The notes under the pieces were generated by a model. That model did no database searches and was not told the DNA's origin. It saw nothing but the letters and a program-made list of their open reading frames with translations. From sequence record SRR31156797_14836: 45,529 nucleotides of DNA; one strand, 5' to 3'. Shown one piece after another: positions 3,634 to 20,918 of this stretch (positions are counted from its first letter, which is position 1; each line of letters starts with the position of its first letter). Made by a program: the position numbers and the translations under genes.

Positions 3634-3978
3634 TTAATCTAAACCTATATAAACATACTCGTCATCAATTTTTACAGGATAAGTTTTTATTTCATAATCT
3701 TCTCCGGAAAGACATTTGCCTGATTTCAGAGAGAAGGATTTTTTATGAAACGGGCAGGCTACTTTGGGTTCATCTCCATCAGATCCGATTAAGCCTCTGG
3801 AAAGCGCCTGCTGTTTTTGGTGAGGGCATTGGTTATCGGTGGCATACCACTCACCTTCTGATTTAAAGTAATAAATAGCTATTTGCTTATCGTCGATCAT
3901 TACAGCTTTACCTCCGTCTTCTTCAAACTCAGAAATTGGGGCTGCTTCTATCCATTTCATTATTGTTGTATCTGTCAT
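3634..3978 (-). CDS. nirD: Nitrite reductase (NAD(P)H) small subunit, Rieske-like
   Basis: DNQCPHQKQQALSRGLIG...VACPFHKKSF motifs. Start moved from the ORF-track 4044 (which overlaps nirB) to the ATG at 3978 (MTDTT...). Confidence 0.92.
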   Translation of the reverse strand: MTDTTIMKWIEAAPISEFEEDGGKAVMIDDKQIAIYYFKSEGEWYATDNQCPHQKQQALSRGLIGSDGDEPKVACPFHKKSFSLKSGKCLSGEDYEIKTYPVKIDDEYVYIGLD

Positions 3979-4037
3979 GTTCTTGTTTTTAATGGTAAAT
4001 AAATTGATGTTACCTCTTTGGTATAGATAAAATGATT

Positions 4038-6530
4038 CTACCAATTGGCTGGTTTCTTCATCTCGCGCATAGCGACAAACTGAATTGAATTATCAGTAGC
4101 ATCTGAATTAACAAAAGGTCTGAACTTTTTAATCATTTCCGGATCGTCCACCACTTTCTTCCATTCACAAGCATAAGAGTCAATCAAATTCTCCATATCT
4201 TTCTCTAATTGCTCACCGATACCCAGAGAGTCTTCAATTACAATTTGTTTAAGGTACTCTAAACCGCCATCTAAGTTATCTAACCATTTTGCAGTTCTCG
4301 TTAATGGAGCAGCTGTTTTTACATAGTACATTAAAAAGCGATCCAGATATCTGATGCATGTTTCTTCGTCAATATCGGTTGCGAATAGTAAAGCGTGTTT
4401 GGGATTGGCCCCTCCATTTCCACATACATATAAATTATATCCTTTATCAGTAGCGATAATTCCAAAGTCTTTACCGCGTGCTTCGGCACATTCTCGAATA
4501 CAACCGGACACACCTCCTTTTAATTTATGTGGAGACCGTAGTCCCTTATAACGGTTTTCAATTTCTAGCGCAAAAGAAACAGAATCCTGCTGCCCATAGC
4601 GACACCATGTTGATCCAACACAACTTTTAACCGTACGAAGAGATTTACCATAGGCATGTCCACTTTCAAATCCGGCATCAATTAACTCTTTCCATATTTG
4701 CGGTAGCTCTTCAACTCGAGCTCCAAACATATCAATTCGCTGACCTCCGGTAATTTTTGTGTACAGATCATATTTTTTAGCTACTTCTCCAATAGCAATT
4801 AACTTGTCTGGAGTGATTTCACCAGCGGCTACACGTGGAACAACGGAATAAGTTCCTCCTTTTTGAATGTTGGCTAAAAACTTATCATTTGTATCTTGTA
4901 TGCTGGCATGTTTGGTAATGTGTTCGTTCCAAATGCTTGCTAAAAGAGACGCGGTTAAGGGTTTGCAAATTTCACATCCACGACCTGTACCATGTTTATG
5001 AAGTAGTTCCGGGTAAGTTTTGATTTCTCCTAACTTAATTAAGTCGAATAACTCCTGGCGGGTATAATCAAAATGCTCGCAAATGACTTTTTTAACTACT
5101 TTACCACTGGCTTCTAACTTAGCAGTTAATAAGTCATCGAGCATCGGTACACATCCCCCACAACCGGTTCCTGCTTTGGTCGCTTTTTTAAGTTGACCTA
5201 CCTGTGTGATGTCAAATTCATCAACAGCTTCAATTAATCTTTTTTTGTTTACGTTTTCGCATGAACAGATCACAGCTTCATCAGGAAGATCAAGAACACT
5301 TAGCTCAAATCCTCCTTCTGCATTTTTAATAATTAAGCCTTCCGGGTTTGCAGGTAGTTTTATATTACTAGCATAGGTTTGGTAGAGCATATTATAATCT
5401 TCTGTATCACCTACTAAGATTCCTCCAAGTAAGTAATTGCCATCTTCTGAGATATAGATCTTCTTATAAATTCCGTTTGGGATATTGTGATAAACAATTG
5501 GTTTTGCTCCTTCCGTTACACCAAATGCATCACCAAAACTGGCTACTTCAATCCCTATTAGTTTTAATTTAGTAGATAAATCTGCTCCTTTAAATGAAGC
5601 TTCATCTCCTTTTAAATTGTTGGCACATACCTCAGCCATATCGTAACAAGGAGCTACAAGTCCCCATATAGCACCCAAAGCAAGAGCACATTCTCCAATG
5701 GCATAAATAGAAGGATCAGATGTTGTCATTTTTTCATCTACCATAATACCACCTCTTTCTCCAACGGTTAATCCACATTCCCTTGCCAATTCATCCCTTG
5801 GACGAATACCTGCAGAAATAACCACCATATCTGTTGTTAAAACCGACCCATCAACAAATTCCATCGCATCAACTTTACCATTTCCGTTAATGCTTTTGGT
5901 ATTTTTATTTAATAAGATATCCAGATCTAATTTTTCAAGTTCGGATTTAAGCATATCAGATCCACTATCATCCAGCTGGCGTGGCATTAAACGAGGAGCG
6001 AACTCTACGACGCTTGTTTTTAATCCGTCATCCATCACTGCTTTTGCAGCTTCTAATCCTAGCAACCCTCCGCCAATAACCGCTGCAGATTTTGCTTGAG
6101 GAACATAGGCTTTAATGGCATCTAAATCTTCTACTGTGCGATATACAAAAACACCTTTTTTGTCAACTCCGGGAATGGGAGGGACAAAGGCTGCTGAACC
6201 TGTTGCCATGACTAAAATGTCATAGGCAAATTCATCACCATGTTTATTAATCGCTAACTTTTTCTTACGATCAATGCTGGTTATTTTATAGCTGGTTCTT
6301 AATTCAATACCGTTTTCCTGGTACCATTCTCTAGGTGCCATTTTGAGATCGCGAACAGATGTGCCTGTATAATAATCAGTAAGGTGCACTCTGTCGTAGG
6401 CAGCCCATGGCTCTTCTCCAAAAACAGTAATATCGTATATTTCATATAATCCTTTTTCAATAAATTTTTCGCAAAATTTGTAGCCGGTCATTCCGTTTCC
6501 AACTACAATTAATTTCTTTTTTGTGCTCAT
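4038..6530 (-). CDS. nirB: Nitrite reductase (NAD(P)H) large subunit
   Basis: FAD motif VVGNGMTG, NAD motif IGGGLLGLE, two BFD-like Cys clusters (CSC...CGGC; CEHF...CEIC), siroheme/[4Fe-4S] ligands CVGSTWC and GCIREC. Confidence 0.97.
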   Translation of the reverse strand: MSTKKKLIVVGNGMTGYKFCEKFIEKGLYEIYDITVFGEEPWAAYDRVHLTDYYTGTSVRDLKMAPREWYQENGIELRTSYKITSIDRKKKLAINKHGDEFAYDILVMATGSAAFVPPIPGVDKKGVFVYRTVEDLDAIKAYVPQAKSAAVIGGGLLGLEAAKAVMDDGLKTSVVEFAPRLMPRQLDDSGSDMLKSELEKLDLDILLNKNTKSINGNGKVDAMEFVDGSVLTTDMVVISAGIRPRDELARECGLTVGERGGIMVDEKMTTSDPSIYAIGECALALGAIWGLVAPCYDMAEVCANNLKGDEASFKGADLSTKLKLIGIEVASFGDAFGVTEGAKPIVYHNIPNGIYKKIYISEDGNYLLGGILVGDTEDYNMLYQTYASNIKLPANPEGLIIKNAEGGFELSVLDLPDEAVICSCENVNKKRLIEAVDEFDITQVGQLKKATKAGTGCGGCVPMLDDLLTAKLEASGKVVKKVICEHFDYTRQELFDLIKLGEIKTYPELLHKHGTGRGCEICKPLTASLLASIWNEHITKHASIQDTNDKFLANIQKGGTYSVVPRVAAGEITPDKLIAIGEVAKKYDLYTKITGGQRIDMFGARVEELPQIWKELIDAGFESGHAYGKSLRTVKSCVGSTWCRYGQQDSVSFALEIENRYKGLRSPHKLKGGVSGCIRECAEARGKDFGIIATDKGYNLYVCGNGGANPKHALLFATDIDEETCIRYLDRFLMYYVKTAAPLTRTAKWLDNLDGGLEYLKQIVIEDSLGIGEQLEKDMENLIDSYACEWKKVVDDPEMIKKFRPFVNSDATDNSIQFVAMREMKKPANW

Positions 6531-6551: not shown

Positions 6552-9500
6552 TTATGATGGCACATAAGCGTTGGTGTCTTTAGCTTTTTCAATCATCATA
6601 GTGATTTCAGGTTTGCAACTTCCGCATCCTGTTCCAGCGTTGGTTTTTTCGCAAATCAATTTTAGGTCGGTAATTCCTTTTTCAATAAGTTCAGAGATGT
6701 TGCCTTCACCCACATTGTTGCAGGAACAAAGTACTTTTCCTTTTACCTGAACAGCAGAGGCATCGCCTCGTAGCAGTGTTTTTCTTTTGTTGTATAGTTC
6801 TGTTTTGTTTTGAATGAGATTTTTGTATTCTCCAAATTCTGTGCGGTCGCCCATTAATATAGTACCCACCATGATATCCTGATGGATAATACACTTTTTA
6901 TAGTATCGGTATTTTTTATCCAAAACAGTAACCTCTTCATAGCTACTGTCGTCTGGTGTTTTAATCATACCCACTGAGCATAGTTCAATACCAGGAAACT
7001 TGAGTATGTTCATAGGTACAGAACCTGTATAATAGGACATTAAATCTCCCATAAAATACCTCGCTAATATTGTTGCTTGTTGTTCCGCTGCTGAAGTAAT
7101 ACCATAAACATGGCCTTTAAATTCTGCAATTTCACCTAAGGCATAAATATCTTTTGAAGATGTTTCAAACCTCTCATTAATTATTACGCCTCTGTTAACC
7201 TGAATGTCGGCCTCTTTTAATAATTCAATATTTGGTTTTGTGCCGATAGCATAAACAATGGCATCGGTAGTGAATGATTTACCTGATTTTAAGTTTACTG
7301 TAGAATTACCATTGTTATTCGGAGATATGGATTCAACCTCTTCTTTCAAATACAGATCTACATTCATCTCACCAATGGTATCACTGAGCATTTGACTGGA
7401 GATTTCATCCAGCTGCTTGTCCATTAATCTTGCATTCCGATGGATTATGCTTACATGTATTCCAAACTCCAATAGTGAACTGGCTATTTCTAGACCAAGT
7501 AATCCTCCGCCAACAATAGTAACCGCATTCTTTCCTTCTAAATTTGTTTTTAATCGGTCAGCATCTTCTCTGCTTCTTATAGTATAAGTAGATTTAAAGT
7601 CAATCTTTACTCCGGGAGGAACGTTAGGACGAGAACCGGTGCATACAATCAGTTTATCGTAACTGTAATCATTACCCTTGTCGTCTATAATGTACTTTTG
7701 TTCCTTATTAATGCTAACGATTTCACATTCGCTAAATAATTCAATACCCCAATCCTTTAGATCACTTTCTTTATGTTTTTGAATATCCAGCCATGCTTTA
7801 TGTCCGGTTAAATATTCAGGTAACAGAATGCGATTGTAAAAAGGGTGTTTTTCTTTAGAAAATACCTTAATCGTATCATTCGAATTTTGGGAACGATATT
7901 CGGCAATGAATTGATATGCTGCAGCTCCTGCTCCAACAATGGCAATGGTTTCTGTTTCTTTAGTGAATTTTCTAACCTCAACTGCAGCGTATTTGAAATC
8001 AGGTTCTTTTGAAGCAGGATCAACGAGATTACTTGTTAAATTATTAGCTCGTGAGAAGTCTGAATTTAAAACTTTCCCCCAATGCATAGGTAAAAATACC
8101 ACCCCCTGTCTGATGTTATCTGTTACCACAGCTTTTACCTGAACATCACCTCTTACATTTTCAACCACGGCCATTTCACCATCTTTGATATTTCTTTCTT
8201 CCGCATCTTTCGGATGGATTTCTAAAAATGGTTCGGGGATATGCTTATTCAATTTGGAAAGCTTACCTGTTTTGGTCATGGTGTGCCATTGATCCCTGAT
8301 TCTACCTGTTGTTAAAATCAATGGAGCCTCTTTAGTTAATGGTTCCGATTGATGAGGCATTTCTATGGCAAAAAGTTGCGCTTTTGTATCCGGCGTATAA
8401 AATTTAAAATCGGTAAATAAACGTTCTTGTCCTTTGTCTTCTCCTTCAAAGAAAGGCCATTGAGCTGATTGATGCTCTTTTAGGTGGGCATAACTTAATC
8501 CACTAATGTTTATATTGGTACCTTTTGTTAGGCCTTTATGCTCATAAAAGATGGATTCACAATCAGGAAAGTCCATGTTCTTAAAACCCATTCTATTGGC
8601 AAAGTCTAACAGAATATCCACATCAGCACGTGCTTCTGCCGGAGGATCAATAGCTTTTGGTAAATAACTAATTCTTCGATCTGAATTAGTCATGGTACCT
8701 TCTTTCTCTAGCCATCCAGCAGCAGGAAGTACAACATCCGCAAACTGAATAGAAGCCGCATTTTTTGAAATGTCCTGTACAACAACAAGGTCCGCTTTCT
8801 TTAACGCTGCTTCGACTCTTCTAGCATTAGGTAAACTAACTAATGGGTTGGTACAAATAATCCAAATAGCCTTTAGTTTACCATCCAGTATAGCATCAAT
8901 CATTTGTGTGGCAGTGAATCCTGGTTTGTCAGGAATGCTGTCAACCTTCCAGTAGTTAGCTACTTCTTCACGGTGCTGAGGGTTAGCCAAATCGCGATGT
9001 GCTGGAAGCAAATTCGCCATTCCTCCAACTTCTCTGCCGCCCATGGCATTAGGCTGTCCGGTTAACGAAAAAGGGCCGTTACCAGGTTTACCTATTTTAC
9101 CTGTGATAAGTGAGATGTTTAAAAGAGAAAGGTTTTTATTTACCCCTATACTGCTTTGGTTTAAACCCATGGCCCACATAGAAATAAAACCCTTTGCATT
9201 TCCAATCAACTCCGCTGTTTCAATAATTAAGGCTAAAGGAACACCACAAGAATCTGCCAATGATTCAAGATTTTCACCATCTAGCTTTTCTTTAAGTGTA
9301 TTAAATCCGGAAGTGTATTTTTCTATAAATTCCGAATCGGTATATCCCCTCTCAATTAAAACCTTGGAAATGGCATAGTTTAAGTAAACATCAGTACCTG
9401 GCTTTAGTTGAAGATGAATATCAGCCATAAAACATGTTTGTGTTTTACGAGGATCAGCTACAATAATTTTAACATGCGGATTTTCCTGTTTGTGTTTTTC

Positions 9501-10055
9501 TATTCTCCGGAACAGAATAGGGTGACACCAGGCCGGATTAGCACCTGTGATAAAAATACAGTCAGATAATTCAATGTCGTTATACGAGATAGGTACAGCA
9601 TCCTCACCTAAAGCTTTTTTGTAACCCACTACTGCGGAACTCATGCATAAGCGCGAATTTGTATCAATGTTATTTGTGCCGATACAAGCCTTGGCTAGTT
9701 TATTAACCACATAATATTCCTCGGAAAGGCACTGACCTGAAACGTAAAAACCAACAGCGTCAGATCCATGCTTTTCAATTATAGAAGAAAAGGATGTAAC
9801 GATGGCGTTTAAAGCTTCGTTCCATGAAGTTTTTTGAAGATTATCTGATTTATTTTTTCGAATAAGAGGATGTAGCAAACGGTCTGAAGTGTCGTTAACA
9901 ACGTGTCCTAATCCCAACCCTTTAGAGCATAACATACCTTTATTAACAGGGTACATTTTGTTGCCCTCTACTTTTATGCTGTTGGTGTTGTCTTTAAGAA
10001 CGGTAACGCCACAACCTACGCCACAATACGAACAAGTTGACTGATATTTCTGCAT
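6552..10055 (-). CDS. nasA: Assimilatory nitrate reductase catalytic subunit (Mo-bisMGD) fused to a C-terminal FAD/NAD(P)H oxidoreductase and BFD-like [2Fe-2S] domain
   Basis: CSYCGVGC...C [4Fe-4S] motif, TNSRLCMSSA Mo-ligand segment, LTGQPNAMGGRE, TTGRIRDQWHTMTKT, then IVGAGAAA, IVGGGLLGLE and LCSCNNV...GTGCGSC. No Tat signal. Confidence 0.93.
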   Translation of the reverse strand: MQKYQSTCSYCGVGCGVTVLKDNTNSIKVEGNKMYPVNKGMLCSKGLGLGHVVNDTSDRLLHPLIRKNKSDNLQKTSWNEALNAIVTSFSSIIEKHGSDAVGFYVSGQCLSEEYYVVNKLAKACIGTNNIDTNSRLCMSSAVVGYKKALGEDAVPISYNDIELSDCIFITGANPAWCHPILFRRIEKHKQENPHVKIIVADPRKTQTCFMADIHLQLKPGTDVYLNYAISKVLIERGYTDSEFIEKYTSGFNTLKEKLDGENLESLADSCGVPLALIIETAELIGNAKGFISMWAMGLNQSSIGVNKNLSLLNISLITGKIGKPGNGPFSLTGQPNAMGGREVGGMANLLPAHRDLANPQHREEVANYWKVDSIPDKPGFTATQMIDAILDGKLKAIWIICTNPLVSLPNARRVEAALKKADLVVVQDISKNAASIQFADVVLPAAGWLEKEGTMTNSDRRISYLPKAIDPPAEARADVDILLDFANRMGFKNMDFPDCESIFYEHKGLTKGTNINISGLSYAHLKEHQSAQWPFFEGEDKGQERLFTDFKFYTPDTKAQLFAIEMPHQSEPLTKEAPLILTTGRIRDQWHTMTKTGKLSKLNKHIPEPFLEIHPKDAEERNIKDGEMAVVENVRGDVQVKAVVTDNIRQGVVFLPMHWGKVLNSDFSRANNLTSNLVDPASKEPDFKYAAVEVRKFTKETETIAIVGAGAAAYQFIAEYRSQNSNDTIKVFSKEKHPFYNRILLPEYLTGHKAWLDIQKHKESDLKDWGIELFSECEIVSINKEQKYIIDDKGNDYSYDKLIVCTGSRPNVPPGVKIDFKSTYTIRSREDADRLKTNLEGKNAVTIVGGGLLGLEIASSLLEFGIHVSIIHRNARLMDKQLDEISSQMLSDTIGEMNVDLYLKEEVESISPNNNGNSTVNLKSGKSFTTDAIVYAIGTKPNIELLKEADIQVNRGVIINERFETSSKDIYALGEIAEFKGHVYGITSAAEQQATILARYFMGDLMSYYTGSVPMNILKFPGIELCSVGMIKTPDDSSYEEVTVLDKKYRYYKKCIIHQDIMVGTILMGDRTEFGEYKNLIQNKTELYNKRKTLLRGDASAVQVKGKVLCSCNNVGEGNISELIEKGITDLKLICEKTNAGTGCGSCKPEITMMIEKAKDTNAYVPS

Positions 10056-10109
10056 GTTTTACTGTCTTGTGAAGAAGAATGTCCTTACGGTTTGTAAGAA
10101 TTAAGCTTC

Positions 10110-10160
10110 TTCTGATGTCAAACTAATATCAGAATCAACTCAAAAAGTAAGTAATCAAAA
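10110..10160 (-). promoter_or_regulatory. Non-coding leader motif, copy 1 (pyrimidine-rich tract plus hairpin) in the predicted nasA 5' UTR
   Basis: + strand TTCTGAT...ATCAGAA inverted repeat (10110-10134) overlapping ATCAGAATCAACTCAAAAAGTAAGTAATCAAAA (10128-10160), which recurs at 14169-14202. Confidence 0.6.
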
Positions 10161-10167
10161 GTTCAAA

Positions 10168-10175
10168 CAAAGATA
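10168..10175 (-). promoter_or_regulatory. Bacteroidota sigma70 -7 box for nasA-nirB-nirD
   Basis: Minus strand TATCTTTG matches TAnnTTTG, ~113 nt upstream of the nasA ATG. Confidence 0.6.
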
Positions 10176-10346
10176 GGGTATTTTTGTTTAAGTAAAAAAG
10201 ATAAAGAAATCATTTTTTATTTGAATTGTATTGGCAGAGTTAGTTTTGTGATGTATAAGTATTACAAACAGAATGAATTATGAATTTTGGTTGAAGGTGT
10301 TATTTTTAAATCAAAAAGAAGTAGCATGTATTAAAAGTACTATAAA

Positions 10347-10883
10347 ATGGTAACAGGAATATTAATAACCGGGGGTAAAAGTTCCAGAATGGGCTCAGAT
10401 AAAGCTTTTGTTAATTATAACGGAAAGGCATTAGGACAATGGTCTTCTGAGCTGTTAAATAAATATTGCGATCATATTATTGTAGCCAGCAATAATCCGG
10501 ATCATGCGATTTGGGGTGATGAGATAGTTGCAGATACTTTGGGAGACGGTCCTATTGCCGGATTGTATGCCGGATTAAGTAAGAGTAATACAGACTGGAA
10601 TCTGGTTTTGCCTTGTGATACGCCTAATGTAAGTGAGGCTGTTTTTGAAAAATTGTTAGAAAGTAAAGATGGGTATGATGCCGTAGTGGGCGTGGATGCA
10701 AATGGAAAACAACACCCTTTGGTAGCTTTGTATCACAGGCAGGTATTAGAAGTTATAAGCGGAGAGATTGAAAAAGGAAAACTGGCCATGATGAATATAC
10801 TGGATCAAATTCAGGTAGGTTTTGTTCAGTTTACCCAAGAGCATGTACTGGATAATATGAATTCAAAACAAGAATTAAGGTGA
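10347..10883 (+). CDS. mobA: Molybdenum cofactor guanylyltransferase
   Basis: ILITGGKSSRMGSDKA, GPIAGL, VLPCDTP, HPLVALY, terminal NMNS. Confidence 0.93.
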   Translation: MVTGILITGGKSSRMGSDKAFVNYNGKALGQWSSELLNKYCDHIIVASNNPDHAIWGDEIVADTLGDGPIAGLYAGLSKSNTDWNLVLPCDTPNVSEAVFEKLLESKDGYDAVVGVDANGKQHPLVALYHRQVLEVISGEIEKGKLAMMNILDQIQVGFVQFTQEHVLDNMNSKQELR

Positions 10884-11401
10884 TTGTAAACTCAATGATA
10901 ATGATTTGCGGAAGTGGTAAGAATGTAGGAAAAACCACTTTGTCGTCTTTATTAGTAAAGTATTTTTCTGACAAAGGGAAACGGGTTTATGCCTTAAAAA
11001 CTTCTTCGCATTTACATCAACTCGATAAAGATGAATGCATCCTAAAGGAGGGTGAAGATTTTGCCGTGGTAAAAGAAAGCCGGAAAAATAACAAAGATAG
11101 TTCATTACTATTACACGCTGGGGCTGTACAGAGTTACTACATTCAGGCATCGTATAAGTATACCATGTTTTCCCTGAGTAATGAGTTAGTACATCAATTT
11201 CCTTCTGATGCTGTTATTATTTGTGAATCGGGCGGCTTAAGGGAGTATATCCGACCTGCATTATTTTTATTTGTATTGGGAGACAAGATCGATAAAAATA
11301 TGCAATATCAACGAGAAGCAGATTATGAACTTAAGTTTGGAGAAGATTTTAATAATCAATTGATCTTAAACAAAGATATAGACCTGGAACGTTTTATTTA
11401 A
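10880..11401 (+). CDS. P-loop protein, divergent MobB-like
   Basis: N-terminal GSGKNVGKTT, ALKTSSHLH, KDS...AGA. GTG start overlaps the mobA stop (GTGA). Confidence 0.6.
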   Translation: MIVNSMIMICGSGKNVGKTTLSSLLVKYFSDKGKRVYALKTSSHLHQLDKDECILKEGEDFAVVKESRKNNKDSSLLLHAGAVQSYYIQASYKYTMFSLSNELVHQFPSDAVIICESGGLREYIRPALFLFVLGDKIDKNMQYQREADYELKFGEDFNNQLILNKDIDLERFI

Positions 11402-11832
11402 TGATGATGGTGCTGTTCTGCACAATCACAATTGGCTCCCCATTCACTGGTTCCGTCTGCAAAAAACTCATGTTTCCAAATTGGCGCTTCCTGTTTAACC
11501 CGGTCAATAATATAACGGTTGGCATCATAGGCTTCTTTCCTATGAGCGGAAGAAGTGACTACTACAACAGCCGTTTCGCAAATACCTACTTTACCTATTC
11601 TATGAACACAGGAAGCATGTTGTAACTCCCATCTCTGTTTAGCATCTTCAATTATACGGGCAATTGTTTTTTCAGCTAAAGGAATGTAGGCTTCATAATC
11701 AATATGCAATACTTCTTTGTTCTTGTTTAAATCGCGTACATCTCCACTAAACATGACAATGGCTCCTGAGCGATGGTGTTTAGCTTGGTTATAGTAATGT
11801 ACTACATCTATATTTTTATCTGTTATGTGCAT
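11398..11832 (-). CDS. moaE: Molybdopterin synthase catalytic subunit
   Basis: GAIVMFSGDVR, YEAY, HRIG, SSAHRKEA, VKQEAPIWKHE. Start set at ATG 11832 (MHITDK). Confidence 0.94.
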   Translation of the reverse strand: MHITDKNIDVVHYYNQAKHHRSGAIVMFSGDVRDLNKNKEVLHIDYEAYIPLAEKTIARIIEDAKQRWELQHASCVHRIGKVGICETAVVVVTSSAHRKEAYDANRYIIDRVKQEAPIWKHEFFADGTSEWGANCDCAEQHHHH

Positions 11833-11860
11833 GATTTTTTTTCTAAAAAATAATATTAAC

Positions 11861-12103
11861 TCAACCTCCACTTGATGGTGGAATTATAAAAACCTCCATT
11901 TGATCTTTGATCATTGTTTCCGTATCCACAAACTCTTCATTGATTGCTGCACGTGATCTGGAAAGTATTTCTGCTGCATCAGGATATTTTTCGGCTAATT
12001 CTGCGATAAGTTGTTTAACGCTTGTATTATCGTTATTCAATGTCCATTCTATGGCTTCTGGAAATGTACGTGTTAATCCTGCAAAAAAATGTATTTTAAT
12101 CAT
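11861..12103 (-). CDS. moaD: Molybdopterin synthase sulfur carrier subunit
   Basis: Ubiquitin-like size, IKIHFFA, AINEEF, C-terminal PPSSGG. Start at ATG 12103, just after the moaA stop. Confidence 0.92.
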   Translation of the reverse strand: MIKIHFFAGLTRTFPEAIEWTLNNDNTSVKQLIAELAEKYPDAAEILSRSRAAINEEFVDTETMIKDQMEVFIIPPSSGG

Positions 12104-12107
12104 GATG

Positions 12108-13052
12108 TTATCCTCCAATATGTCTCATGCTCATTTCATTCCCAATAAAACGAAGTGGTTGTTTTTGTTTAAGAGCCATCATTAATTCTTTATTGATAGA
12201 CTCACCTTGTTTAATTTTTTTCAGAACAGATAATCCTTTTACAGCACTAATGCAGCCATAAAGTTTTCCATAACTGTCCAGGCGTAGACGATCGCAGTCT
12301 TTGCAAAATGGTTCTGATTCGTTGGCGATTATACCGAATTCGTAATTGCCCTCGTTAATCTCCCAGTAGTTGGCTGTTGCTGATGCAATTCTAAGTTTTT
12401 TGTGCGTAGGATAAACCTGATGTATTTCATCCAATATTTCTTCCTGCGAAAAAAAGTAATCGTGATAATTATGGTGCAGGTAGCCCATTTTCATTAATTC
12501 CAGAAATCTAACGGGAATATCATATTTCATACCAAATTCAAGCAAAGGAATAATTTGATGATCATTGATTCCTTTTAAAATGACTGAGTTTATTTTAAGA
12601 TCAAAACCATTCTCTTTTGCTGCATAAATCCCTTTTAAAGTTTGTTTCAGCATGCGTTTACGAGTCATTTTTTCAAAAACGTTTTCATCTAAAGCATCCA
12701 GTGAAATGTTAATAGATTTAAGGCCTGCTTCTCTTAATCTGGGAGCAAGCTTTTCCAGGTAAAATGCATTTGTAGTAAGCGCAATATCTTCAATTCCACA
12801 ATCCTTAACCTGTTTAATTAAATGAACCACATGAGGGTACATAAGCGGTTCGCCACCAGTTATCCGTATCTTTTCAAGATTTAATTCATTATGGAGCACT
12901 TTTACAATATCAACCATATCAGCAGCTGTTAACGTGGGTTTTAACTGAGACCTGATATCATTTGCATGGTTTTCAGGAACACAGTATGTGCATGCCATGT
13001 TACAAGTGTCTGTTAAACTTAGTCTTAGCTTTTTGAATTTTCGTGTTTCCAT
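12108..13052 (-). CDS. moaA: GTP 3',8-cyclase (radical SAM)
   Basis: LRLSLTDTCNMACTYC, RITGGEP, TTN, FCKDCDRLRL...GC second cluster, C-terminal IGG. Confidence 0.95.
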   Translation of the reverse strand: METRKFKKLRLSLTDTCNMACTYCVPENHANDIRSQLKPTLTAADMVDIVKVLHNELNLEKIRITGGEPLMYPHVVHLIKQVKDCGIEDIALTTNAFYLEKLAPRLREAGLKSINISLDALDENVFEKMTRKRMLKQTLKGIYAAKENGFDLKINSVILKGINDHQIIPLLEFGMKYDIPVRFLELMKMGYLHHNYHDYFFSQEEILDEIHQVYPTHKKLRIASATANYWEINEGNYEFGIIANESEPFCKDCDRLRLDSYGKLYGCISAVKGLSVLKKIKQGESINKELMMALKQKQPLRFIGNEMSMRHIGG

Positions 13053-13067
13053 AATTTAAAATAATCG

Positions 13068-13075
13068 CGAAGATA
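13068..13075 (-). promoter_or_regulatory. Possible -7 box for moaA-moaD-moaE
   Basis: Minus strand TATCTTCG, one mismatch to TAnnTTTG, 15 nt upstream of the ATG. Confidence 0.35.
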
Positions 13076-13307
13076 TGAATGTATTACAGTTGATCTGAAA
13101 AAATGTTTATTGAATACATATCCAATTAGAGTTAATTTGCTTTATTTAGAGAAAAAAATGAACGAATATATCTCTTTGATGTTTATATAATTGTTTAAAA
13201 ATTAAAAATCTACAATTGTACCTCCCTTAAAATAGGCTTGTGTACTTAAAAATTGATATTTTTCTAGATTGGCCTGTTGTTTTGATAATTATTTAAAGCG
13301 TTAGTTG

Positions 13308-14021
13308 ATGTTTCCTAAAAGTACCGATTGTATAAGTTGTGTAAATGCAGAATGCCTTATAAAAAGACATATTTCTGAACCTGAATTGGAATCCTTTTTA
13401 GTGAGTAAAAATACAATGCGCTGTCGTAAAGGCCAGAGTGTAGTTCTAGAGGGTGCGCCAATTCATGGGGTGCATTTTGTGCACACAGGCAGAATTAAGC
13501 TTTTTAGTACAGGTATTAATGGAAGAGAACAGATATTGAGGTTTGCTATTAATGGTGAAATGCTGGGGCAAAGTGGATTTAGTTCGAGACAATGTTATTT
13601 GAATGGAGCTATAGCACTGGAGGATACTACGATGTGCCATTTTACTTTGGATGTAATGAAAAAGATGTTGCAGGTTTTTCCTAAACTAGCCTATGACTTT
13701 ATGGTATACTATGCAGAAGAATTGAATAGAAGCCAAACCAAAATAAGAATGTTTGCGCATATGACGGTTCGTGAAAAAGTCATTGATGCATTATTATATA
13801 TAAACAGAAAGTTCGGACATAAGAATGGTGCCATTGATATTCAGCTAAGTCGAAAAGAGATTGCTGATTTTGCAGGAACTACAGAAGAGCAGGTAATACG
13901 AATTTTGTCTGCCTTAAAGAAGGAAAATCTGATAGAAAGCTATGGAAAAAAGATTGGGATACCAGATTTGGAGGCATTAAAGAAGGAAATTGATGAACAT
14001 CATTTCTTTTTGCAGAGCTAG
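13308..14021 (+). CDS. Crp/Fnr family transcriptional regulator with N-terminal CxxCxxxxC
   Basis: CISCVNAEC, cNMP-binding fold (GRIKL...GEMLG), HTH LSRKEIADFAGTTEEQVIRILS. ATG at 13308 (TTG at 13305 also possible). Confidence 0.92.
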   Translation: MFPKSTDCISCVNAECLIKRHISEPELESFLVSKNTMRCRKGQSVVLEGAPIHGVHFVHTGRIKLFSTGINGREQILRFAINGEMLGQSGFSSRQCYLNGAIALEDTTMCHFTLDVMKKMLQVFPKLAYDFMVYYAEELNRSQTKIRMFAHMTVREKVIDALLYINRKFGHKNGAIDIQLSRKEIADFAGTTEEQVIRILSALKKENLIESYGKKIGIPDLEALKKEIDEHHFFLQS

Positions 14022-14053
14022 TTAAGTGCCATAAAATAAGATATATATAATTT

Positions 14054-14079
14054 AAACCTGCGATATAGCAGGTTTTTTT
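14054..14079 (+). terminator. Intrinsic terminator after crp/fnr-1 (possibly bidirectional)
   Basis: AAACCTGC-GATATA-GCAGGTTTTTTT. Confidence 0.85.
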
Positions 14080-14126
14080 ATGCGATAAGATTTATAAAAT
14101 AATGACAAAAAGACGGTAAAAACATA

Positions 14127-14202
14127 TCTGATTGCATATGATAGATGTTTTGCACTCCATATTTTTACATCAGAATCAATTCACAAAAGTAAGTAATCAA
14201 AA
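14127..14202 (-). promoter_or_regulatory. Non-coding leader motif, copy 2 (possible sRNA)
   Basis: TCTGAT (14127-14132) pairs with ATCAGA (14169-14174). ATCAGAATCAATTCACAAAAGTAAGTAATCAAAA differs from copy 1 by one substitution and one insertion. Confidence 0.5.
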
Positions 14203-14390
14203 ATCCATTAAGCAAAGGCATAGTGGTAAGGGATAAAAGAAAGGAATCTTTCATTTTTTTTGAGTCTATAAAAGAATTAAAGCTCTTAAATTCATTAGAA
14301 ATGAAAGTGGTATTATTTTTCAACACAAACTTATTAAAAATCAGTGTTGGTTTAACAATGGTTTTTAATGAGTTTAAAACTTAAACTCAC

Positions 14391-15740
14391 ATGAAAAAAT
14401 TATTCACATTTGTTTTAGCCGTTTTTTGTTTGGGAGCCTTAAAAGCTCAGGTCACTTTTACAGGGCAATACCGTGCACGAGGTGAAGTGCGTAATGGTTT
14501 TAAAACTCCGATTTTGGAAAATCAGGAGCCTGCTGCTTTTGTTGAGCATAGAGCTCGTTTGGAAGCACTATATAAAAAAGACAAAGTGGGCTTTAAAGTT
14601 TCTGTTCAGGATGTTCGCATTTGGGGAGAGACAGGTCAAATTAATAAGTCAGATCAATTATTAAGCGCACATGAGGCATATGGCGATTTTTATGCTTCCG
14701 ATAAAAGTACTTTCAGAATTGGGCGTCAGGAAGTAATTTATGATGATCACCGTTTCTTCGGTAGTTTGGATTGGGCCATGCAAGGACGTTCGTTAGATGC
14801 AGTAAGATATATGTATAAAAGTGAAGGTACTCAGTTTGATGTAATGTTAAGCTGGAATCAGCCAGGTTATGGTGATGGTGCTCCTGAGCCAGCTAAACTT
14901 GTAGGAAATACATATGCAATAACTACAGGAGGAGGAACAAATCCTCGTATTTTTAACCTTGGGTTACCTAAAAGCCAGCAGATGGTGTATTATAAAAAGA
15001 GTTTTGAAAGTGGTAGTGTAGGTATTATGTTGGAAAACGATTTATATAATTCGTCAACAACAAGCAGTGAAACCTATAGTAATATGACATTAGGTATTTC
15101 TCCAAGTTTTAAGTCAGGAAAATTAAAGTATGGAGGACAATTTTTCTACACCGGTGGAACTGCCAATAAAGTGGATGATGGCAATGGAGGAATTACCAAA
15201 ATAGACTTATCCGGATTCATGTTTAATGCTTATGTGCAGGCTACGGGAGTTACAGGATCTCCACTATTAGGGTTTGATTATTTAAGTGGAGATGATCAGA
15301 GTACCGGAGATAAAGTGGAAGGTTGGGCTCCTAAATACGGAACAAATCATAAGTTTTATGGTTTTATGGATTACTTCTATGTTGGTAATGGCCATGGAGG
15401 AGGTAATGCTGCCAGTGCAGGTTTAGTCGATATTTATTTAAAAACAACGTTTAAAATTGGAAAAGCTAAGTTATTGGCGCATTTGCATCAGTTTATGTCA
15501 GCAGAAGAACGGGTAAACGCAACAAGCGGAGAGAGCTACGATGGAGCTTTAGGAACTGAACTTGACTTGGTTTTTGTTAAAAAGCTAGCTCCTGAATTAG
15601 TACTAAAAGCCGGTTACTCACAAATGTTTGGAATTACGGAAACAATGAAACAATTGAAATTCGGTAACCCAGATCAGGAGATACAGGGAATGCAATCATG
15701 GGGATGGTTAATGGTTGCTTTTACACCTAAGTTTTTATAG
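14391..15740 (+). CDS. Outer-membrane beta-barrel porin, alginate-export (AlgE)-like family, nitrate-cluster associated
   Basis: Signal peptide (..LKAQ), RARGEVRNGF, QDVRIWG, RIGRQEVIYDDHRFFG, YGTNHKFYGFMDYFY, C-terminal beta strand. First gene of the nrt run. Confidence 0.8.
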   Translation: MKKLFTFVLAVFCLGALKAQVTFTGQYRARGEVRNGFKTPILENQEPAAFVEHRARLEALYKKDKVGFKVSVQDVRIWGETGQINKSDQLLSAHEAYGDFYASDKSTFRIGRQEVIYDDHRFFGSLDWAMQGRSLDAVRYMYKSEGTQFDVMLSWNQPGYGDGAPEPAKLVGNTYAITTGGGTNPRIFNLGLPKSQQMVYYKKSFESGSVGIMLENDLYNSSTTSSETYSNMTLGISPSFKSGKLKYGGQFFYTGGTANKVDDGNGGITKIDLSGFMFNAYVQATGVTGSPLLGFDYLSGDDQSTGDKVEGWAPKYGTNHKFYGFMDYFYVGNGHGGGNAASAGLVDIYLKTTFKIGKAKLLAHLHQFMSAEERVNATSGESYDGALGTELDLVFVKKLAPELVLKAGYSQMFGITETMKQLKFGNPDQEIQGMQSWGWLMVAFTPKFL

Positions 15741-20204: not shown

Positions 20205-20918
20205 GTGCGTATGGTAAAAGCAACATGTGATACGTGTGAAAACACCAATTGTTTAATTCAGAAACATATACAAAAGGAAACATTACAGCCTTTTATCAAA
20301 CAAAAAAATGCTTTTGCTTGCCAGTCTGGACAACAGTTTATCCTAGAGGGAGCGCCGGTTAGTGGACTTTATTTTATTTATAAAGGAAGTGTAAAAGTTT
20401 ATAAACAAACGGATGAGAACAACTTTCAGATCATTCGTTTTTCAAAAGATGGAGAGATCGTAGGACATCGGGGATTTGGTACTAACTATGTATATGATAT
20501 TAGTGCCAGTGCATTAACCAATTCTGTATTGTGCCATTGGGGAACGGAAATTTTGATAGAGATGTTGCATAAAACGCCTGAACTGATGTTTGATTTTATG
20601 CTGTTTTATGCCGATCAGCTGCAAAAGAGTGAGTCCAATGCCAAACGTTTTGGAAAGATGAGCGTGCGCGAAAAAGTGATTAACGGACTTCTTTTTATTG
20701 AAAGCAAGTTTGGTCAATCCGATGGTTTTTTCAATCTCACCTTATCCCGTAAGGATATTGCTGATTTTGCCGGAACTTCGCAAGAGCAGGTGATTAGGGT
20801 GATCTCTAAATTAAAGAAAGAAGGACTATTGGTTACAAAAGGGAAAAAAATAGGTGTGCCTGATCTTCCTAAAATGGAAGCAGAACTAGGTGAGAATGGT
20901 TATTTTCTGGAAGGTTAG
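20205..20918 (+). CDS. Second Crp/Fnr family regulator with N-terminal CxxCxxxxC
   Basis: CDTCENTNC, LEGAPVSGLYF, GEIVGHRGF, HTH LSRKDIADFAGTSQEQVIRVIS. Clear paralog of 13308-14021. Start GTG 20205 or ATG 20211. Confidence 0.92.
   Translation: MRMVKATCDTCENTNCLIQKHIQKETLQPFIKQKNAFACQSGQQFILEGAPVSGLYFIYKGSVKVYKQTDENNFQIIRFSKDGEIVGHRGFGTNYVYDISASALTNSVLCHWGTEILIEMLHKTPELMFDFMLFYADQLQKSESNAKRFGKMSVREKVINGLLFIESKFGQSDGFFNLTLSRKDIADFAGTSQEQVIRVISKLKKEGLLVTKGKKIGVPDLPKMEAELGENGYFLEG

Follow-up and report, generated by a model that had tools for sequence, protein, structure and literature searches.

In the excludon type of arrangement, divergent operons have overlapping antisense 5' untranslated regions (UTRs). 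Leaders can also give rise to RNAs that act in trans, as when terminated S-adenosylmethionine (SAM) riboswitch transcripts act on prfA, and the leaders of nitrate assimilation genes can be sites of nitrate-responsive antitermination, as with NasR at nasF in Klebsiella and the ANTAR-type protein NasT. At the level of DNA, regulators of the Fnr/Crp family share the operator consensus TTGAT-N4-ATCAA. Here, we compare with these systems a pair of short repeats in a 45,529-nucleotide (nt) stretch of DNA from sequence record SRR31156797_14836 ("the window" refers to this whole stretch). The window holds a nitrate assimilation cluster, with its gene order assigned by Pfam domains; one copy of the repeat lies in front of the nitrate and nitrite reduction genes nasA-nirBD, and the other lies in front of a porin-nrtABCD operon for nitrate uptake (Table 1). 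The reading that we find best, and hold tentatively at somewhat less than an even chance, is that the two leaders begin with complementary sequences that would pair with each other in trans.

The likeness to an excludon is that two operons have 5' leaders complementary over tens of nucleotides, so that one may affect the other via an RNA duplex. There, however, one piece of DNA is read from both strands, in cis, whereas here two copies 4 kb apart would each be read from one strand, the pairing would be in trans, and the complementarity would be held by co-evolution. Like the SAM riboswitch transcripts, the hairpins and U-rich run of the porin leader could yield a short RNA with a free 5' part that pairs elsewhere, but no canonical terminator was detected in the porin leader, and no ligand-binding fold or Rfam family matches. 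A long structured leader upstream of a nitrate assimilation operon also recalls the NasR and ANTAR systems; in contrast to these, no NIT or ANTAR regulator is encoded in the cluster according to Pfam, and the motif is unstructured. The accessible part of a further report describes an interaction of the Listeria monocytogenes hly 5' UTR with prsA2 mRNA (PMC8722363), which, as far as that part goes, resembles our proposal in that a 5' UTR acts in trans on an mRNA of the same functional module, coupling expression, and differs from it in phylum and genes and in that the pairing predicted here would involve the extreme 5' end of either mRNA, over ~30 nt. What would distinguish this locus from the known systems is that the complementary segments appear to be two separate, co-evolving copies at the extreme 5' ends of operons of the same pathway.

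The repeat is a real, conserved, cluster-specific element. Its two copies stand in direct orientation on either side of a 4,041-bp segment of the chromosome and differ only at C/T (10139/14180) and by one extra C at 14184, in agreement with a first-pass annotation of this DNA that had described a repeat with one substitution and one insertion. No similarity between the copy regions was found outside the 33 nt. An 18-mer core has exactly two matches in the window at ≤3 mismatches, both of them exact (expectation, 0.48; at least two matches in 7 of 100 shuffles). In G001, a complete genome that served as the reference relative and is 98% identical to the window over the copy 1 region, the core occurs at ≤1 mismatch in three places, namely, the two nas sites and one site inside a SusC-like open reading frame; at three mismatches, the count is 68 versus 71 for a reversed-pattern control, so only near-exact matches are meaningful.

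We also scanned a family sample of 133 genomes for the pattern and found matches in 18 genomes (30 rows, versus 6 control matches). Ten unique sites are the nas sites; 17 of the 18 others lie inside open frames of ≥100 codons, and the remaining one is intergenic, between Omp85-like and NAD kinase genes. A sequence-only model built from 11 copies found exactly two matches per genome in 5/5 genomes (30.2 to 40.9 bits), with the next-best match at 18.5 bits; since these ten matches are the model's own training sequences, the informative part is the absence of a third copy. Neither a third copy nor a wider regulon was found in G001, in the family pattern scan, or with the model on the five genomes, which bears out the suggestion that the motif is tied to the nitrate cluster rather than scattered genome-wide. 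Taken singly, blocks A and B of the motif (defined below) showed no enrichment at other promoters of the cluster. An Rfam scan (Rfam 15) of positions 9800 to 14600, on both strands and at an E value of ≤10, matched the motif to no family, as the first-pass annotation had supposed; its nine weak matches (17.6 to 23.6 bits, against gathering scores of 41 to 85) overlap neither copy.

Conservation was followed in a genus sample of 23 genomes (the GTDB genus of G001). An ortholog of nasA occurs in 5 of the 23, at 75 to 100% identity over the first 200 residues (a sixth match, at 38% identity, is another enzyme and was left out), and the orthologous porin occurs in 6. Copy 1 is upstream of nasA in 5/5 cases, and copy 2 is upstream of the porin in 6/6; the sixth genome, without a nasA match, retains the porin copy, and copy 2 of G018 is more diverged. 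The core conserved across copies consists of block A (CAGAATCAA), a spacer (7 to 8 nt in copy 1 and 8 to 10 nt in copy 2), block B (AAGTAAGTA), and a variable tail. Both blocks are invariant or nearly so in the 11 copies, while the surrounding intergenic DNA has diverged.

In every genome examined, the motif is antisense to nasA (minus strand) and sense to the porin-nrt operon (plus strand), an opposite orientation that the first-pass annotation overlooked. Because the copies would be read from opposite strands, the leaders would be complementary and would not share one RNA motif, and the earlier idea that the same cis-acting RNA element stands in both leaders is contradicted.

Each copy is directly downstream of a Bacteroidota -7 box, for which the accessible part of the source gives the sigma-A pattern TAnnTTTG at -12 to -5 (PMC9723704). 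The perfect box that had been noted beside copy 1 (minus strand, 10168 to 10175) is indeed there; its counterpart is perfect in G001 and also in G005 and G018, the last two with TATATTTG, whereas G014 and G002 have degenerate versions. The porin box reads TA, then two variable bases, then TTTA in each of the six relatives; it stands three bases before block A and aligns with the TAnnTTTG/TAnnTTTA of Prolixibacteraceae porin promoters, at an equal distance from a conserved AAAAGAC block. Judged from these boxes, the two copies are predicted to form the first ~33 nt of two transcripts, in opposite senses. The similarity of copy 1 to copy 2 stops within -3 to +4 of the predicted nasA transcription start site (TSS) in all five lineages, despite their species-specific tails. 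In a sigma-A test (-33 TTTG and -7 TAnnTTTG, ~19 bp apart), both flanking boxes fit; a box inside the motif also fits in four of the five lineages and is destroyed in G014.

The predicted leaders, at 108 and 219 nt, are long compared with the median 5' UTRs of the phylum, which are 24 to 32 nt. The 219-nt porin leader folds better than its shuffles (z, -3.83; 0/200 as good), and a four-species alignment of it retains three helices, in which 8 of 44 pairs have changed on both sides. It also has several G-U pairs that on the opposite strand would be C-A mismatches. Together, the compensatory changes and strand-specific G-U pairs indicate that the plus strand is probably transcribed from near copy 2 and that transcription runs rightward through the porin leader region.

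The hairpins of the porin leader could have a role unconnected with the motif, as an attenuator or as a translational switch. The stems of hairpin 2 (HP2) are unrelated in the window and G005, with a conserved apical AAAGCTCTTAAA and a U-rich run afterward; hairpin 3 (HP3) covaries, and a small hairpin ends 2 nt before the porin AUG. A terminator scan of 14081 to 14390 passed no candidate, while HP2 and its U-rich run are conserved. A 27-codon ATG frame at 14301 to 14384 (plus), which ends 6 nt before the porin ATG, was considered as a leader peptide and is probably not one; the frame is kept only in G001, with amino acid changes, and neither G005 nor G014 has the ATG or an open frame.

After the complement of the motif, the nasA leader has a conserved block, then a hairpin specific to each species, and finally A-rich sequence before the AUG at 10055. 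The conserved fold of this leader as a whole is weak (consensus energy, -3.6 kcal/mol), and the motif segments of the two leaders are without an intrinsic fold (0 and -2 kcal/mol). The first-pass annotation had drawn a hairpin with conserved pairing in both copies. For copy 1, its TTCTGAT/ATCAGAA hairpin does fold well in the window (-13.7 kcal/mol; z, -3.99), and the second hairpin that it described, CTTAC/GTAAG, is present; in relatives, the copy 1 hairpin uses other partners or registers (z, -0.30, -1.08, -1.03, and -2.09) and is mostly no better than shuffles. For copy 2, the proposal fails. The TCTGAT in question (14127 to 14132) lies upstream of the predicted porin promoter and is absent in G001 and other relatives, and its pairing is a chance match.

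Evidence that the copies change together comes from the tail that follows block B and a portion of the spacer, which differ between species and agree between copies within a species. Thus, the window has ATCAAAA in each of its copies, G002 has AGTGTAAA in each, and G018 has ATTGTAAGTA in each; both G005 copies have GTAAGTG, and both G014 copies have GTAA for AAAA. By local-alignment scores between copy 1 and copy 2, the true species pairing was the best of 120 permutations of five lineages, all of one genus, a sample in which p cannot fall below 1/120. Columns capable of pairing made up a fraction of 0.805 of those aligned, versus a permutation mean of 0.755, and this too was the best of 120. 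Eleven columns have changes on both sides. At column 33, four species have A-U, G001 has G-U, and the window has G-C. This series describes a compensatory path with a wobble intermediate, and it holds only in the predicted polarity, with the minus strand read at copy 1 and the plus strand at copy 2. Likewise, the independent helix-internal transitions between copies are all wobble compatible in that polarity (4/4), with none incompatible.

Within species, the predicted duplex energies are -34.6 to -44.1 kcal/mol. Co-folding of the full leaders yields the intermolecular duplex in 5/5 species; relative to the monomers, the net energy gain is -17.7 to -26.3 kcal/mol. The first 36 nt of the porin leader are unstructured (0 kcal/mol). 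The locus therefore has extended complementarity, kept by compensatory change, as expected of leaders that pair in trans, albeit with a pattern of change that gene conversion would produce equally.

We postulate the following mechanism. The nasA-nirBD mRNA would start with the reverse complement of the motif (predicted TSS at ~10163, minus strand) and the porin-nrtABCD mRNA would start with the motif itself (predicted TSS at ~14172, plus strand), so that the 5' ends would be mutually complementary. The duplex would comprise two helices of ~10 and ~18 to 20 bp around a small asymmetric internal loop, and the partners could be the full-length mRNAs or a short leader-derived RNA from the porin side. 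Pairing would couple nitrate and nitrite reduction to nitrate uptake; our guess at its effect is mutual 5'-end protection or joint processing, the direction of which is not readable from sequence. That the reductase and transporter operons communicate directly in this way, through a ~33-nt 5'-terminal trans mRNA-mRNA duplex that is maintained by compensatory evolution and couples uptake to reduction without a dedicated small RNA, is a possibility about which we are slightly more doubtful than about the pairing as such. We infer the TSS positions, the meeting of the two RNAs, and the sign of the effect. Pairing in trans appears to fit best with the orientation of the copies, the promoters, the structure of the porin leader, the co-evolution, the accessibility and length of the leaders, and the points, given below, that speak against a protein site.

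Several observations weigh against trans pairing. Both TSSs are predicted from consensus boxes only, the similarity runs 3 nt upstream of the predicted porin TSS, and the -7-like box inside the motif could shift the nasA TSS to ~10137, leaving ~10 nt of complementarity. Concerted change of the repeats would also result from gene conversion or from the tracking of one DNA-binding protein, given that a column with both sides changed is equally a column with the same substitution in both DNA copies, and the permutation tests, with their floor of 1/120, draw on five lineages of a single genus. Pairing alone does not demand that both blocks be near-invariant across species. Trans mRNA-mRNA pairing is rare and hence has a low prior, the benefit of pairing two mRNAs that are needed jointly is not obvious, and Prolixibacteraceae manage with the same regulators and operon and without such a repeat.

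The alternative that survives best is a DNA operator. A single protein (a Fnr-like regulator of the cluster or an unlinked factor) would bind an asymmetric ~30-bp site downstream of both promoters and would repress or otherwise control both operons; the orientation of the site is irrelevant to steric repression. We regard this as unlikely, albeit a serious candidate. Its prior is the stronger one, since it corresponds to the most usual state of affairs, in which the two promoters of a pathway share a site and the cluster encodes two regulators. Both copies begin within a few nucleotides of a predicted TSS. A likeness to Fnr/Crp operators is seen in the two Fnr-like regulators of the cluster, in the one TTGAT half-site of the block A complement near the transcription start, and in copy 2, which fits TTGAT-N4-ATCAA at two mismatches, centered on the predicted porin +1. 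However, copy 1 needs three mismatches, there is no dyad symmetry and no second good half-site, and Fnr box matches in the window occur at chance (66 found versus 63.9 expected). The strict conservation of blocks A and B would suit protein contacts, and the tails of several copies are GTAAGTA at a 10-nt period, which would suit a protein that binds direct repeats, but the distance that separates the blocks is not fixed, ranging over 7 to 10 nt, a variation of up to 3 bp.

Comparison of the regulators bears on an operator in the same two-sided way. Both of them retain an E...R pair at what we take to be the positions of the Fnr-type recognition helix. The helix-turn-helix (HTH) stretch is invariant in both regulators and in two Prolixibacteraceae orthologs, yet the motif is absent from those loci and is restricted to the genus. 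Inverted half-sites at a fixed spacing and a site conserved wherever the recognition helix is conserved, both of which characterize Fnr/Crp operators, were thus not found. Blocks upstream of the promoters are conserved across families, unlike the motif, and are better candidates for regulator sites. An operator also leaves unexplained why nonconserved positions change jointly in both copies, and for a global nitrogen regulator, one would expect a genome to hold more than two sites. The first-pass annotation had preferred an RNA element to a Crp/Fnr operator, and that preference holds insofar as the motif is nonpalindromic, probably transcribed, and a poor Crp/Fnr fit; it does not hold as to the kind of element, since the leaders would carry complementary partners rather than one shared motif.

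A less probable explanation than an operator, and one that we consider quite unlikely, is that the repeats have no function of their own and are left over from an event, a rearrangement or an insertion, by which mobAB-moaEDA came to lie between nasA and regulator 1, with occasional gene conversion keeping them similar. The copies do flank the 4,041-bp segment as direct repeats, and conversion does produce concerted evolution. Against this, blocks A and B are near-invariant in 11 copies amid diverged intergenic DNA, and the changes that extend the similarity sit at the repeat edge, with no homology beyond it or anywhere outside the 33 nt. The longest perfect match, 18 nt, is at or below the length that RecA-mediated exchange usually needs. 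The adjacency of regulator 1 and the porin is ancestral, so the segment is not a simple insert. We also considered and rejected an att or target duplication origin, since the regulator 1-porin adjacency is common to Prolixibacteraceae, and a longer duplication reaching mobA and the porin, since the similarity is confined to the motif even though each copy lies ~220 nt from the next plus-strand ATG.

Still less probable is a minus-strand core promoter, with the block B complement as the -7 box (TACTTTTG/T/A) and block A as the start site region. Copy 1 would then be the true nasA promoter, and copy 2 would drive a leftward RNA of ~100 to 125 nt across the porin promoter to the terminator hairpin at 14054 to 14075, which has A and T runs on both sides. 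Such a promoter, conceivable for nasA, accounts for a conserved, oriented, nonpalindromic element, and copy 2 has a perfect TAnnTTTG on the minus strand (14191 to 14184); copy 1 has TACTTTTT with a TTTG 18 nt upstream, a TTTG-N18-box spacing that also occurs in G005 and G018. However, G014 and G013 carry TACTTAC instead of the box in both copies, with their clusters intact, and for copy 2 the distance to the -33 element is 21 nt in the window versus ~35 nt in G005. Prolixibacteraceae, which are without the motif, also conserve the DNA left of copy 2, so this is porin promoter DNA, and the plus-strand polarity of hairpin 1 (HP1) points to rightward transcription through copy 2.

The model of the first-pass annotation, a single cis-acting RNA element with a conserved hairpin (a protein or small-RNA target) in both leaders, is very improbable: while the promoter predictions would have the motif transcribed and the block A hairpin folds well in the nasA leader of the window, the two RNAs would carry complementary rather than identical sequences, the sequence that would complete the copy 2 hairpin is upstream of the promoter and missing even from G001, the motif has neither a fold of its own nor an Rfam match, and copy 1 could give the copy 2 RNA sequence only in a mobA leader, whereas no plus-strand -7 box precedes copy 1 in the scanned intergenic region.

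The motif had also been put forward as an element of a nitrate regulon; the comparison does not support it as a general one in Bacteroidota. Among 79 porin loci across Bacteroidota, the motif was found in 6, all from this genus. In three genomes from two other genera of the family, nasA stands behind a major facilitator superfamily (MFS) transporter gene, and the motif was not found. The sister family, Prolixibacteraceae (Draconibacterium, Mangrovibacterium, and Sunxiuqinia), shares the synteny of regulator 1-porin-nrtABCD-regulator 2; the motif was not found in its porin loci, nor was any complementary or repeated pair above shuffled controls except an AT-rich match in one locus (L096; 20.0 versus a control maximum of 18.5), in a comparison of loci that mostly leave Prolixibacteraceae nasA outside. 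A metagenome scan with the regulator 1 protein found no relative. A metagenome pattern scan gave at least 119 stretches; among the matches listed, none encodes nasA, the porin, or regulator 1, and distant ABC ATPase matches occur in two loci. One look-alike (L180) was rejected because its flanks are unrelated, and the metagenomes contributed no further species.

Other features of the intergenic regions were seen along the way. Upstream of the porin promoter, positions 14120 to 14160 differ from G001 (~7730 to 7770 of locus L089) at many positions, despite ~98% identity elsewhere; G001 has a 16-bp near-palindrome there, GGATGTTTTAACATCC, which the window lacks. Among the Prolixibacteraceae loci L093 to L106, an AAAAGTTRA block is kept ~60 to 90 nt upstream of nirB in five loci, where a divergent gene borders the intergenic region on its other side, and resembles AAAAGTAAG of block B. 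Gene arrangement varies in more distant Bacteroidota (L107 and L104 were noted): in L107, the porin, nrtABCD, and nasA stand in a row on one strand. In the genus under study, uptake and reduction form two separate, divergent units, an arrangement that would profit from a coupling device.

The remaining genes of the cluster are listed in Table 1. NasA is a fusion with molybdopterin nitrate reductase, pyridine nucleotide-disulfide oxidoreductase, rubredoxin reductase C-terminal, and BFD-like [2Fe-2S] domains (by Pfam, it can also be described as a fusion with an NAD(P)H-flavoprotein and a BFD domain); its length in relatives is 1,171 to 1,185 amino acids (aa), about that of the protein in the window. 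Regulators 1 and 2 are paralogs, 42% identical, that bracket the porin-nrt operon and have an identical HTH stretch, LSRK.IADFAGT..EQVIR. Both have an N-terminal CxxCx4C and a fourth conserved Cys, a pattern that suggests an Fe-S sensor. The regulator pair and its synteny are kept in Prolixibacteraceae. Taken together, these features hint that oxygen or redox state governs nitrate assimilation in these facultative anaerobes.

Table 1. Features of the nitrate assimilation cluster, with positions numbered along the window
Feature	Position	Strand	Remarks
nirD	3634-4044	minus	
nirB	4038-6530	minus	
nasA	6552-10055	minus	1,167-aa fusion product; AUG at 10055
Predicted nasA leader	10163-10056	minus	~108 nt; motif complement at 5' end
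nasA leader hairpin	10100-10145	minus	UUCUGAU/AUCAGAA plus outer stem; would sequester block A complement
Copy 1	10128-10160	motif complement on minus (nasA) strand	~nt +4 to +36 of predicted nasA-nirBD leader
Copy 1 block A, plus-strand writing	10130-10138		CAGAATCAA
Box in copy 1 equivalent to that inside copy 2	10149-10142	minus	TACTTTTT; TTTG 18 nt upstream
Copy 1 block B, plus-strand writing	10145-10154		AAGTAAGTAA; 8-nt spacer before, tail after
nasA -7 box	10175-10168	minus	TATCTTTG; perfect TAnnTTTG; predicted TSS ~10163
mobA, mobB	between copy 1 and moa genes	plus	
moaE, moaD, moaA	between mobB and regulator 1	minus	
Regulator 1, Fnr-like	13305-14021	plus	Crp-type HTH and cyclic nucleotide monophosphate (cNMP)-binding domains
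Terminator 3' of regulator 1	14054-14075		from terminator scan
Porin-nrt -7-like box	14160-14167	plus	TATTTTTA (TAnnTTTA); predicted TSS ~14172
Copy 2	14169-14202	plus, sense	~nt -3 to +31 of predicted porin-nrtABCD leader
TAnnTTTG inside copy 2	14191-14184	minus	TACTTTTG; perfect
Predicted porin-nrt leader	14172-14390	plus	~219 nt; strongly structured
HP1	14205-14226	plus	porin leader
HP2	14248-14307	plus	porin leader; U-rich run after
HP3	14327-14375	plus	porin leader
Porin, alginate export type	14391-15740	plus	
nrtA, nrtB, nrtC, nrtD	3' of porin	plus	one operon with porin
Regulator 2, Fnr-like	20205-20918	plus	end of nrt operon
moeA, moaC, moaB	after regulator 2		

To our knowledge, Bacteroidota are without Shine-Dalgarno sequences, and their post-transcriptional control is poorly understood. 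Our search of titles and abstracts found nothing on the regulation of nitrate assimilation in this phylum. Cultured relatives exist in Labilibacter marinus and Saccharicrinis aurantiacus. If the site is bound by a protein, it would be an unusual operator: asymmetric, variable in spacing, present twice per genome, and on the transcribed side of two promoters. On either reading, the promoters and long structured leaders of the cluster are now defined as predictions. If the leaders do pair, this would be a rare natural case in which two operons of one pathway are coordinated by direct contact between the 5' ends of their mRNAs.

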